In this document: positions 1 to 34,924 of the stretch, one piece after another | Position numbering within the stretch: position 1 is the stretch's first letter | Layout: each line of letters begins with the position of its first letter | Virus record (IMG/VR): IMGVR_UViG_2896589216_000002 | Origin: a virus | Lineage: Duplodnaviria; Heunggongvirae; Uroviricota; Caudoviricetes | Reading direction: 5' to 3' (one strand) | DNA: 34,924 bases | Program-made: the position numbers and the translations under genes | Notes under the pieces: model-generated | What the model was told of the DNA's origin: nothing | Seen by the model: only the letters and a program-made list of their open reading frames with translations | Databases searched by the model: none

Positions 1-381
1 ATGCAGAAAAATGTGAATCCCGGCAGGCGAAAAGGCTGCCCTAATTATCCTCCCGAATTTAAACAGCAGCTCGTTGCTGCCTCCTGTGAACCCGGGATAT
101 CCATCTCAAAACTTGCTCTTGAAAATGGCATTAACGCCAATCTGTTGTTCAAATGGCGACAACAATGGCGCGAGGGAAAGCTGCTATTACCTTCTTCAGA
201 GAGCCCCCAGCTACTTCCTGTGACTCTCGATGCAGCTGCCGAACAGCCAGAATCGCTCGCAGAGGATCCGGAAACCCTCAGTATCAGCTGTGAGGTAACG
301 TTCCGGCACGGGACGCTCCGCTTTAATGGCAATGTCAGCGAAAAGCTCCTGACTCTGCTGATACAGGAACTGAAGCGATGA
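1..381 (+). CDS. tnpA: IS66-family accessory protein TnpA (OrfA), first ~7 codons cut by window edge
   Basis: Identical to the 133-aa ORFs at 19886-20287 and 28328-28729 (which start MGTKVSDMQKNVN). Confidence 0.85.
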   Translation: MQKNVNPGRRKGCPNYPPEFKQQLVAASCEPGISISKLALENGINANLLFKWRQQWREGKLLLPSSESPQLLPVTLDAAAEQPESLAEDPETLSISCEVTFRHGTLRFNGNVSEKLLTLLIQELKR

Positions 382-725
382 TCCCGTTACCTTCCGGGAC
401 CAAAATTTGGCTGGTTGCCGGTATCACCGATATGAGAAATGGCTTCAACGGCCTGGCGGCAAAGGTGCAGACGACGCTGAAAGACGATCCGATGTCAGGT
501 CACGTTTTTATCTTCCGTGGGCGTAATGGCAGTCAGGTAAAGCTCCTCTGGTCTACCGGCGATGGACTGTGTCTGCTGACCAAACGGCTGGAGCGCGGCC
601 GCTTCGCCTGGCCGTCAGCCCGGGATGGCAAAGTGTTCCTCACACCGGCACAGCTGGCGATGCTCCTTGAAGGTATCGACTGGCGGCAGCCTAAAAGACT
701 GCTTACGTCCCTGACTATGTTGTAA
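378..725 (+). CDS. tnpB: IS66-family TnpB (OrfB), 115 aa
   Basis: ATGA overlap with tnpA; conserved IS66 OrfB-type sequence; three identical copies in window. Confidence 0.85.
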   Translation: MIPLPSGTKIWLVAGITDMRNGFNGLAAKVQTTLKDDPMSGHVFIFRGRNGSQVKLLWSTGDGLCLLTKRLERGRFAWPSARDGKVFLTPAQLAMLLEGIDWRQPKRLLTSLTML

Positions 726-773
726 GCCTCTTTATCCTGGTCGACGCTGAATGAGCCTGGTAATATACCCGGT

Positions 774-2312
774 ATGAGCAGCTCACTTCCTGACGATATC
801 AATGCACTGAAACGTCTCCTTGCCGAACAGGAGGCGCTGAACCGTGCCCTGCTGGAAAAGCTGAACGAGCGTGAACGCGAAATAGACCATCTGCAGGCAC
901 AGCTGGATAAGCTGCGCCGGATGAACTTCGGCAGCCGCTCCGAAAAAGTCTCCCGTCGTATCGCACAGATGGAAGCTGACCTGAAGGCACTTCAGAAAGA
1001 AAGTGATACCCTTACCGGTCGGGTTGACGACCCGGCCGTGCAGCGCCCGCTGCGTCAAACCCGCACCCGCAAACCGTTCCCCGAATCACTCCCCCGCGAT
1101 GAAAAACGGCTGCTGCCGGCAGCGTCATGCTGCCCGGAATGTGGAGGCTCACTGAGCTATCCGGGTGAGGATGCCGCCGAACAGCTGGAGTTGATGCGCA
1201 GCGTCTTCCGGGTTATCCGGACTGTACGTGAAAAGCATGCCTGTACTCAGTGCGATGCCATCGTGCAGGCCCCCGCGCCTTCACGGCCCATCGAGCGGGG
1301 TATCGCAGGACCGGGGCTGCTGGCCCGCGTGCTGATCTCAAAGTATGCAGAGCACACCCCGCTGTACCGCCAGTCTGAAATGTACGGCCGCCAGGGCGTG
1401 GAGCTGAGTCGTTCACTGCTGTCGGGCTGGGTGGATGCATGCTGCCGGCTACTGTCACCGCTGGAAGAAGCGCTTCAGGACTATGTGCTGACTGACGGTA
1501 AGCTCCATGCTGATGACACGCCTGTCCCGGTGCTGTTGCCAGGCAATAAGAAAACGAAGACCGGGCGGTTATGGACCTACGTTCGTGACGACCGTAACGC
1601 CGGGTCAACGCTGGCGCCGGCGGTGTGGTTCGCTTACAGCCCGGACAGAAAAGGCATCCATCCGCAGACCCATCTTGCGGGGTTCAGTGGTGTACTGCAG
1701 GCGGATGCATACGCCGGGTTCAACGAGCTGTACCGGGATGGCCGGATAACGGAAGCCGCCTGTTGGGCTCACGCCCGCCGTAAAATCCACGATGTGCACG
1801 TTCGCACCCCGTCAGCCCTGACGGAGGAAGCGCTGAAACGGATCGGCGAACTGTACGCCATCGAGGCAGAGATAAGGGGAATGACGGCGGAGCAGCGCCT
1901 TGCCGAACGTCAGTTGAAAACGAAACCGCTGCTGAAATCCCTGGAAAGCTGGCTGCGTGAAAAGATGAAAACCCTGTCGCGACACTCAGAACTGGCGAAA
2001 GCGTTCGCATACGCCCTGAACCAGTGGCCGGCGCTGACGTACTATGCAGATGATGGCTGGGCTGAGGCGGACAATAACATCGCTGAAAATGCGTTGCGGA
2101 TGGTCAGTCTGGGCCGCAAAAACTACCTGTTCTTCGGTTCGGATCATGGAGGAGAGCGGGGAGCGCTGCTGTACAGCCTGATCGGGACGTGCAAACTGAA
2201 CGGAGTGGAGCCAGAAAGCTACCTCCGCTATGTCCTTGACGTCATAGCCGACTGGCCGATAAACCGGGTCGGCGAACTGCTCCCCTGGCGCGTAGCACTG
2301 CCGACTGAATAA
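774..2312 (+). CDS. tnpC: IS66-family transposase TnpC, 512 aa
   Basis: Long ORF with Cys-rich zinc-finger-like region (CCPECG...CTQC); identical to copy 3. Confidence 0.9.
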
Positions 2313-2345
2313 CACATCCCCGTCAATACGGTTCTTGCTGCACGC

Positions 2346-2705
2346 TTACGATTTTGCCAGCATGACTACCGGGGACAGGCGGCCCAGTGAGTCGGGACCA
2401 GCATTCCAGATACGACCGTTCCATTCAAACGTGAACGGCTTCGCCTCCTGTTCTGCGCGCCATGCTTCAATTTCCTGACGTCTGGCCTCTCTGGCCGCTT
2501 CCTGCATTTCTGGTGTCACAGTGAATGGGGCTATCTCACCCCATTTGCCGCTTTGCAGTTCCTGCCAGATTTGCTGACCCGTCGGAGCGACATCATCAGC
2601 GGTGGCTGTGTAGGGGACTGCCTGGTCCCTGTCGTCAAAAAAAACGTCACAGTCTACTGCGCCACTTTCGGTATAACGGGGATTAATGATTTTTTTAGTT
2701 TCCAC
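2346..2705 (-). pseudogene. tail fiber assembly protein (Tfa-like), GTG start at 2705; 3' end abuts IS66 and stop codon lies inside the IS terminus
   Basis: RBS gagga upstream of GTG (VETKKIINPRY...); last sense codon 2349-2351 and stop 2346-2348 straddle the IS66 end. Confidence 0.5.
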
Positions 2706-2715
2706 GGTGCATTCC

Positions 2716-32903: not shown

Positions 32904-32984
32904 TGAGCATGAAACTAATGGCAAAAGCAATGGAAATTAAAGTGGGTAATCCATTGCGTAAGCTGGTTCTGATTAAGCTGGCTG
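32904..32984 (+). pseudogene. N-terminal stub of a replication-initiator-like (lambda O / YdaU-like HTH) gene, cut by IS911
   Basis: MSMKLMAKAMEIKVGNPLRKLVLIKLA then IS911 IRL at 32985. Confidence 0.3.
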
Positions 32985-34211
32985 TGAAGTGGCACACTGA
33001 ATTTGGCCACCTGAACAGAGGTGATATGCTCACCTCAGAACAACACAGGTGCTCCAATGAAAAAAAGAAATTTTAGCGCAGAGTTTAAACGCGAATCCGC
33101 TCAACTGGTTGTTGACCAGAAATACACGGTGGCAGATGCCGCCAAAGCTATGGATGTTGGCCTTTCCACAATGACAAGATGGGTCAAACAACTGCGTGAT
33201 GAGCGTCAGGGCAAAACACCAAAAGCCTCTCCGATAACACCAGAACAAATCGAAATACGTAAGCTGAGGAAAAAGCTACAACGCATTGAAATGGAGAATG
33301 AAATATTAAAAAAGGCTACCGCGCTCTTGATGTCAGACTCCCTGAACAGTTCTCGATAATCGGGAAACTCAGAGCGCATTATCCTGTGGTCACACTCTGC
33401 CAAGTGTTCGGGGTTCATCGCAGCAGCTACAGATACTGGAAAAACCGTCCTGAAAAACCAGACGGCAGACGGGCTGTATTACGCAGTCAGGTACTTGAGC
33501 TACATGGCATCAGCCATGGTTCGGCCGGAGCAAGAAGCATCGCCACAATGGCAACCCGGAGAGGCTACCAGATGGGACGCTGGCTTGCTGGCAGGCTCAT
33601 GAAAGAGCTGGGGCTGGTCAGCTGTCAGCAGCCGACTCACCGGAATAAACGTGGTGGTCATGAACATGTTGCTATCCCTAACTACCTTGAAAGGCAGTTC
33701 GCCGTGACCGAGCCAAATCAGGTGTGGTGCGGTGATGTGACCTGTATCTGGACGGGTAAGCGCTGGGCGTACCTCGCCGTTGTTCTCGACCTGTTCGCAA
33801 GAAAACCAGTGGGCTGGGCCATGTCGTTCTCGCCGGACAGCAGGCTCACCATGAAAGCGCTGGAAATGGCATGGGAAACCCGTGGTAAGCCCGGTGGGGT
33901 GATGTTCCACAGCGATCAGGGCAGTCATTATACGAGCAGGCAGTTCCGGCAGTTATTGTGGCGATACCAGATCAGACAGAGTATGAGCCGGCGCGGAAAC
34001 TGCTGGGATAACAGCCCAATGGAACGCTTCTTCAGGAGTCTGAAGAACGAATGGATGCCGGTGGTGGGTTACGTAAGCTTCAGCGAGGCAGCTCACGCCA
34101 TAACGGACTATATAGTTGGATATTACAGCGCACTAAGACCGCACGAATATAACGGTGGGTTACCCCAAACGAATCGGAAAATCGATACTGGAAAAACTCT
34201 AACTCGGTGGC
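32985..34211 (+). mobile_element. IS911 copy 3; right IR interrupted about 22 bp before its end by IS1
   Basis: IRL tgaagtggcacactgaatttggccacctgaacagag at 32985; IRR breaks after ...aactcggtggc. Confidence 0.9.
33057..33359 (+). CDS. IS911 OrfA
   Basis: [14 protein letters not shown]...; A6G slippery site at 33306-33312. Confidence 0.9.
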
Positions 34212-34216
34212 GGTAA
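33386..34216 (+). CDS. IS911 OrfB (C4 variant), reading into IS1
   Basis: DDE transposase frame. Confidence 0.8.
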
Positions 34217-34226
34217 TGACTCCAAC

Positions 34227-34604
34227 TTATTGATAGTGTTTTATGTTCAGATAATGCCCGATGACTTTGTCATGCAGCTCCACCGATTTTGAGAACGACA
34301 GCGACTTCCGTCCCAGCCGTGCCAGGTGCTGCCTCAGATTCAGGTTATGCCGCTCAATTCGCTGCGTATATCGCTTGCTGATTACGTGCAGCTTTCCCTT
34401 CAGGCGGGATTCATACAGTGGCCAGCCATCCGTCATCCATATCACCACGTCAAAGGGTGACAGCAAGCTCATAAGACGCCCCAGCGTCGCCATAGTGCGT
34501 TCACCGAATACGTGCGCAACAACCGTCTTCCGGAGCCTGTCATACGCGTAAAACAGCCAGCGCTGGCGCGATTTAGCCCCGACGTATCCCCACTGTTCGT
34601 CCAT
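34227..34604 (-). CDS. insB: IS1 InsB (isoform 2)
   Basis: InsB homologue. Confidence 0.85.
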
Positions 34605-34648
34605 TTCCGCGCAGACGATGACGTCACTGCCCGGCTGTATGCGCGAGG

Positions 34649-34924
34649 TTACCGACTGCGGCCTGAGTTTTTTAAGTGACGTAAAATCGTGTTGAGGCTA
34701 ACGCCCATAATGCGTGCAGTTGCCCGGCATCCAACGCCATTCATGGCCATATCAATAATTTTCTGGTGCGTACCGGGTTGAGAAGCGGTGTAAGTGAACT
34801 GCAGTTGCCATGTTTTACGGCAGTGAGAGCAGAGATAGCGCTGATGTCCGGCAGTGCTTTTGCCGTTACGCACCACCCCGTCAGTAGCTGAACAGGAGGG
34901 ACAGCTGATAGAAACAGAAGCCAC
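34649..34924 (-). CDS. insA: IS1 InsA (isoform 2)
   Basis: 91-aa InsA, start codon at window edge. Confidence 0.85.

Follow-up and report, generated by a model that had tools for sequence, protein, structure and literature searches.

The DNA analyzed here is a 34,924-nt stretch (the window) from Shigella dysenteriae 14 ATCC 49346, in which 13 copies or fragments of insertion sequences (IS) are distributed among prophage genes. The window corresponded to about 1,372,029–1,406,952 of CP026832.1, a PacBio genome named S. dysenteriae 14 ATCC 49346 (PMC10132075). Two loci of CP026832.1, L004 and L016, had 100% identity to window 1–14124 and 23572–34924, respectively. The whole window was not found in one piece in any complete Escherichia coli genome. 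Directly to the right of the window, L016 carried the C-terminal part of the integrase gene (intC), followed by ybhA, modCBA and galE. To the left (L004 14217–21059), zitB, pnuC and nadA were joined to the phage tail-fibre end by an IS copy designated as ISEc22-A.

Other reference loci were the VL40 ipaH3 phage (L001), loci of the enteroinvasive E. coli (EIEC) FDAARGOS_943 [the ipaH3 prophage at pphA (L003), the ybhA–pgl prophage with ipaHb (L002 and L015), and L008], and loci of S. flexneri 6 (L011 and L014) and S. boydii (L012).

Insertion sequences in the window

IS were delimited by self-comparison of the window, alignment to annotated EIEC and E. coli loci, and inspection of the ends. Together, the 13 segments covered 15,349 bp (43.95% of the window), and copies of the same type had 99.2–100% identity over 0.13–2.4 kb. 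Such a pattern is not due to chance. The total length was 7,230 bp for the first IS66-family type, 879 bp for the second, 2,376 bp for IS1, 1,331 bp for IS2, 3,195 bp for IS911, and 338 bp for IS600. An earlier reading made without database searches (the sequence-only reading) had put the IS share at about 44%, in 13 copies or fragments of six types, with subtotals of ~7.2, 0.9, ~2.4, 1.3, ~3.2, and 0.3 kb. The same 13 segments were found, its map was correct almost to the base and can be trusted, and each subtotal agreed within tens of bases. Its family assignments also held, both by protein models and by DNA identity to RefSeq-named elements. The IS names were taken from RefSeq annotation, whose product names derive from ISfinder, and were used as a proxy; NCBIfam protein models were judged against their curated cut-offs.

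Three segments belonged to an ISEc22-like element of the IS66 family: ISEc22-A (1–2349, plus strand), with tnpA-tnpB-tnpC intact; ISEc22-B (17919–20358, minus strand, 2,440 bp); and ISEc22-C (26360–28800, minus strand, 2,441 bp), which was intact. The element had 99.7% identity to RefSeq-named ISEc22 over the full 2,441 bp, began with GTAAGCGT at both ends, and encoded tnpA-tnpB-tnpC with an IS66-type DDE transposase. The NCBIfam scores were 465 bits for transpos_IS66 (cut-off 180), 120 bits for IS66_TnpB (cut-off 50), and 97 bits for IS66 TnpA (cut-off 74). ISEc22-A and ISEc22-C differed by one mismatch. In ISEc22-B, a 1-bp deletion at 18756–18757 relative to copies A and C split tnpC into open reading frames (ORFs) 17956–18738 and 18519–19493; from its sequence, this copy, though its target duplication is kept, is probably no longer autonomous.

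The second IS66-family type was a remnant at 28801–29679 (minus strand), which comprised the left inverted repeat (IRL), tnpA and tnpB. It matched Pfam TnpB_IS66 (E = 2.8e-36) and HTH_Tnp_1, and shared only 68% identity with ISEc22 in tnpB. The remnant corresponded to nt 1–879 of a 2,506-bp element, with 99.4% identity. The full element lay in the nimR–nimT interval of FDAARGOS_943 (L008), had GTAAGCG termini and an 8-bp duplication (TTTTAGCT), and carried no specific IS name in RefSeq.

IS1 was present as two complete 768-bp copies, IS1a (4462–5229, minus strand) and IS1b (15839–16606, plus strand), as a 127-bp fragment with the right inverted repeat (IRR) end (26233–26359), and as IS1-d (34212–34924, minus strand). 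The length of 768 bp, the ~23-bp terminal repeats beginning GGTRATG, the insA and insB frames, and the duplications of 8–9 bp were all found. The NCBIfam model transpos_IS1 matched insB with 148 bits (cut-off 100); insA, covering only part of the model, scored 89 bits, below this cut-off. The IS1a isoform had 99.9–100% identity to IS1 copies of FDAARGOS_943, and the 127-bp fragment belonged to this isoform (ident 99.2%). IS1-d was of an IS1A-type isoform, with 98.7% identity to annotated IS1A copies, and the two isoforms were 91% identical to each other. A single complete IS2 (7171–8501, plus strand, 1,331 bp) with orfA and orfB had 99.9% identity to annotated IS2; with the IS2-specific models for TnpA and TnpB, its proteins scored 275.8 bits against PRK09413 (cut-off 229) and 727.6 bits against PRK09409 (cut-off 597).

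Three IS911 segments were found: a truncated copy (22966–23685, plus strand) consisting of the last 720 bp with the IRR; a full copy (24647–25894, minus strand, 1,248 bp) with both ends present; and IS911-c (32985–34211, plus strand), the first 1,227 bp of the element. IS911 had 99.7% identity to elements of that name, TGAAGTGG termini and orfA/orfB, and its OrfB scored 292.6 bits with transpos_IS3, above the curated cut-off. The end of IS911-c has not been lost by deletion: IS1-d interrupts this copy, and the final 21 bp of IS911-c lie beyond IS1-d, immediately past the window end. ISEc22-A and IS1-d were cut only by the window edges. Both were complete in the genome, where ISEc22-A continued for 92 bp to form a 2,441-bp element.

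The full IS911 copy and IS911-c had both lost 1 bp from a run of C close to the orfB 3′ end (24680–24700 and 34150–34170); this deletion was absent from the truncated IS911 and from the reference copies, and it alters the final ~15 codons of OrfB. The orfB frame of the full copy extended through the IRR to 24594.

IS600 was represented by its first 338 bp (29680–30017, minus strand), with the IRL (TGAGGTAGCCTGAG) and orfA. The fragment had 99.4% identity to three annotated IS600 copies, and its orfA matched HTH_Tnp_1 (E = 1.4e-20). Positions at 23.7–24.6 kb and 25.9–26.2 kb were rejected for this fragment, as these stretches were the phage holin/tRNA segment and the integrase fragment. No further IS sequence or transposase was found in the other 56% of the window. 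Nearly all of this remainder aligned to annotated phage genes in references that were IS-free or differently interrupted; the sole stretch aligning to no reference was at about 6058–6320, inside a divergent tail-fibre ORF.

Prophage genes, simple insertions and decay

The tail genes lay on the minus strand and were interrupted by four IS. At 2350–4461, the tail-fibre end comprised a DUF4376 gene cut at amino acid 139, a frameshifted gene for the tail-fibre N-terminal part, and the 3′ part of the tail-fibre assembly gene. The 5′ part of the assembly gene, the divergent tail-fibre gene and the 3′ part of the DUF2612 wedge gene followed at 5230–7170. The segment 8502–15838 carried the baseplate, spike, hub, tape-measure (SLT) and chaperone genes and part of the tail tube gene, with baseplate J, tape-measure and tube frameshifted. 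The tube gene continued at 16607–17918 with its 5′ part, alongside the 3′ part of the DUF3383 sheath gene; two frameshifts were present in the sheath gene. The 5′ part of the latter, the neck terminator and the head-tail connectors lay at 20359–22965, where one gene was frameshifted and the last was without its first codon at a deletion edge.

Empty sites were reconstructed by removing the IS and one copy of its duplication, and the resulting 50-nt site was sought in relatives. Exact duplications flanked IS1a in the tail-fibre assembly gene (9 bp, CAGGAACTT), IS2 in the DUF2612 wedge gene (5 bp, CTGAT), IS1b in the tail tube gene (8 bp, GACAGTTT), and ISEc22-B in the DUF3383 sheath gene (8 bp, GCATCAGC). 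All four reconstructed sites matched 50/50 nt in VL40 (L001) and FDAARGOS_943 (L003), in the same genes, which were uninterrupted there. Each of these IS represents one simple insertion into a tail gene. A fifth exact duplication, of 9 bp (CTCGGTGGC), was seen when the genome was read beyond the window end, where it flanked the complete IS1-d; IS1-d is likewise a simple insertion, into IS911-c.

Beyond the tail genes, a holin gene and four tRNA genes lay at 23686–24646 (minus strand), an internal fragment from the N-terminal part of the integrase lay at 25895–26232 (minus strand), and the early region with ash-rha, DUF1391, a cI-like repressor gene, cro and ydaT lay at 30018–32984. The tRNA cluster (24203–24513, minus strand) was intact, together with the holin gene, between two IS911 copies. 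Its members were Gly(tcc), Thr(tgt), Arg(tct) and a tRNA with a CAT anticodon, which was called Met by ARAGORN and tRNA-Ile in RefSeq. Rfam models of C4 antisense RNA (78.6 bits) and isrK (63.8 bits) matched 30677–30764 and 30790–30866, respectively, on the minus strand. Both lie at the 5′ end of the long ash-rha ORF, a position suggestive of a P1/P7-like module for c4-type immunity or antirepressor control and of a true rha start downstream of the listed ORF start.

Four tail genes (assembly, DUF2612 wedge, tube and sheath) were cut by IS, and at least six genes were frameshifted (tail-fibre N-terminal, baseplate J, tape-measure, tube, sheath and one connector). The integrase gene was split, DUF4376 was truncated, and the replication, Nin, lysis, terminase and head regions were absent. 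The prophage is defective because of the IS cuts, the frameshifts, the truncated DUF4376, the split integrase and the absence of ~10.7 kb of lysis, terminase and head genes described below. It is dead and unable to make particles.

Joints formed by IS911 and ISEc22

Mapping to the FDAARGOS_943 ipaH3 prophage (L003) showed what is missing at the truncated IS911. Its inner break (22966) adjoined the first connector gene, with window 22963 mapping to L003 18464, and its IRR (23685) adjoined the holin end, with window 23686 mapping to L003 7801. The ~10.7 kb of lysis, terminase and head genes absent at this point was therefore lost; it corresponds to L003 7802–18463, which includes one IS600 in FDAARGOS_943. 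The truncated IS911 marks the site of this loss.

The full IS911 copy (24647–25894) bordered the tRNA fragment on its IRR side and the integrase N-terminal fragment on its IRL side, and intC followed the IRR of IS911-c. In S. flexneri 6 (L011 and L014), both parts of the integrase gene flanked one IS911 copy (intN-CAG|IS911|CAG-intC), and a second IS911 linked ydaT to the tRNA segment. These flanks were split over two inverted IS911 copies in the window (24647–25894 and 32985–34211), and S. boydii (L012) had the ydaT|IS911|intC joint in common with the window. The swapped IS911 flanks and the split CAG therefore indicate that the early region was inverted in S. dysenteriae 14. IS911 was inserted into the integrase gene with a 3-bp CAG duplication; this copy then recombined with another IS911, which lay in inverted orientation beside ydaT, and the early region was flipped. 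The two CAG halves are now on different IS911 copies, S. flexneri 6 representing the unflipped state.

No matching 3-bp flanks were found on any IS911 copy in the window, while four of six reference IS911 copies showed 3-bp duplications. The window copies are without the duplication because their flanks were exchanged, and the CAG pair was intact on one S. flexneri 6 copy. A 3-bp duplication is a feature of the insertion event and not of IS911 identity.

The motif GACATT was observed 2–5 nt from three IS911 IRR ends (23686–23700, 24632–24646 and the integrase C-terminal flank in L016). It was rejected as an IS911 target preference, since it was absent at five independent IS911 sites elsewhere, and is probably a coincidence or local sequence. 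A composite transposon made of the holin–tRNA segment between two IS911 was also rejected: the segment was collinear with the prophage, one IS911 copy was truncated, and no duplication was present.

ISEc22-A had unmatched flanks (ACTTAACT and GATTTTGC) and therefore no target duplication. It joined the zitB side to codon 139 of the DUF4376 tail-fibre gene. As zitB lies at this side and ybhA, mod and gal lie on the far side, a larger inversion of the ybgS-to-prophage segment is indicated relative to the gene order of E. coli K-12. ISEc22-A may be the joint of this inversion, which would have placed the tail-fibre end beside zitB. ISEc22-C was also without a target duplication, and for both copies this is explained if they are recombination joints. 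The two were rejected as reciprocal partners, because none of their 8-bp flanks matched when compared.

ISEc22-C lay in a nested IS region. Here the IRL terminus of the second IS66-family element adjoined IS600 at nt 338; the IRL of ISEc22-C adjoined the second IS66-family element just before tnpC; and the IRR of ISEc22-C adjoined IS1 127 bp from the IS1 end. In the same place, S. flexneri 6 (L011) had a complete IS1, ydaE and IS600. IS600 may have been hit by the second IS66-family element, and that element then by ISEc22; the rest of IS600 and of the IS66 element, ydaE and most of IS1 may then have been removed, either through adjacent deletion or through recombination of two ISEc22 copies. 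The rearrangements used the IS copies as repeats.

The sequence-only reading had described four insertions with exact target duplications, deletion scars at others, and a prophage cluster that was defective and prone to recombination, and had proposed comparison with the same locus in close relatives. That comparison located the empty sites and alternative IS911 joints. The four duplications were confirmed, each with an intact empty site in relatives. Some of the deletion scars were reassigned, as several of the joints without duplication were attributed to inversion or recombination instead. The defective state was borne out by the decay described above. The proneness to recombination was also supported, as identical junctions between IS911 ends and flanks occurred in different pairings in S. 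dysenteriae 14, S. boydii and S. flexneri 6.

Origin of the prophage and comparison with known systems

The window is best explained as a single prophage-sized remnant, left by a temperate phage of the ipaH type whose early region was lambdoid and whose tail was contractile; the remnant lies beside ybhA and was colonized and reshuffled by IS (probability about 0.88). What had been called a cluster is best understood as a single unit of prophage size, located between ybhA and pgl. In FDAARGOS_943, a full ipaHb prophage with this architecture occupied the ybhA–pgl interval, and pphA carried an ipaH3 prophage.

Several points weigh against this explanation. The DNA from baseplate to neck (~6.3–23 kb) had 99.5% identity to the ipaH3 phage at pphA of FDAARGOS_943 and no blastn match to the ybhA–pgl prophage of the same strain; this makes the unit a mosaic, one that could have been drawn from two resident prophages. 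In S. flexneri 6, the ydaT-side IS911 joint differed by 99 bp from that of the window, so the ancestral state was not strictly identical. The reciprocal joints of the proposed ISEc22 events were not seen, and a single genome does not prove in which order the events of the nested IS region took place.

The mosaic structure could mean that two prophages, one of the ipaH3 type normally at pphA/yebW and one Rac-like at ybhA, were brought together by IS-mediated rearrangement. The missing blastn match would fit this, as would the EIEC strains, in which the tail module is located with ipaH3 at pphA and the int-to-ydaT module at ybhA. However, the tail-fibre end (2350–6057) had 91–98% identity to the ybhA–pgl prophage, and the tRNA set (Gly, Thr, Arg and Ile) was the same as in that prophage. 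In S. flexneri 6, moreover, the integrase, early region, tRNA, holin, tape-measure and baseplate genes lie beside ybhA in the order that is canonical for a phage. An exchange of modules among related phages would explain the mosaic, and a second integration is not needed. An origin from two prophages is therefore considered unlikely. Much less probable still is that some junctions are long-read assembly errors in repeat-rich DNA, which would make the IS count and the joints partly an artefact. Near-identical copies of 0.7–2.4 kb are a classic source of misjoins, and the frameshifts in homopolymer runs could be PacBio errors; yet the ISEc22-A, IS1a and IS2 junctions were also present in the complete genome CP026825 (ident 99.9% over 14 kb) and in the draft contig AKNG01000060, and the IS911|intN|IS1, IS600|rha, ydaT|IS911 and IS911|tRNA junctions recurred in independent S. 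flexneri 6 and S. boydii genomes. Misassembly would also leave the four insertions with exact duplications and exact empty sites unexplained.

A single reshuffled remnant beside ybhA gives a base-level example of IS killing and reshuffling a Shigella prophage, in a region that will break short-read assemblies. As the joints differ among S. dysenteriae 14, S. boydii and S. flexneri 6, they are possible structural markers. A more tentative proposal, which we regard as doubtful, is that the ybhA–pgl ipaH remnant is a recurrent rearrangement hotspot in cluster-1 Shigella and that, together with this, the 2,506-bp IS66-family element is an uncatalogued IS. If the hotspot were real, the nested IS joints, comprising the IS911 inversion, the ISEc22 joints and the nest of IS600, the IS66-family element and ISEc22, would be an ordered record of events, usable as lineage markers.

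Compared with the ipaH prophages of FDAARGOS_943 and VL40, the window had the same gene order and architecture. It was integrated on the same side (ybhA) as the FDAARGOS_943 ybhA phage and shared 98–99.7% identity with it in the integrase fragment and from cI to ydaT, and about 90% in ash-rha. Unlike the ipaH prophages of EIEC, the window was without the lysis, terminase, head, replication and Nin regions and the ipaH end, contained 13 IS pieces, and had an inverted early region. With RefSeq-named ISEc22, the ISEc22-like copies had in common the length of 2,441 bp, the order tnpA-tnpB-tnpC, the GTAAGCG termini and, in copy B, the 8-bp duplication; they differed in the frameshifted tnpC of copy B and in the missing duplications of copies A and C.

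IS1, IS2, IS4, IS600 and IS911 have expanded in parallel in all Shigella species (Hawkey et al., 2020; PMC7373316), with 229–348 IS counted on each reference chromosome and at most 9.26 per 100 kb. The word "prophage" is absent from the text of that paper. Four of the five expanded types (IS1, IS2, IS600 and IS911) were present in the window; the IS66-family member was ISEc22-like in the window and ISEc8 in Sd197 (PMC7373316). With 13 pieces in 34.9 kb, or ~37 per 100 kb, the window had roughly four times the top chromosome average (PMC7373316) and is a local IS hotspot; a disabled prophage would be expected to tolerate insertions. No new mechanism or element type is involved. Insertions that inactivate genes and vary between strains are common to the window and to the chromosomes described by Hawkey et al. 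(PMC7373316), and the feature is a known kind of genome decay, ordinary for Shigella.

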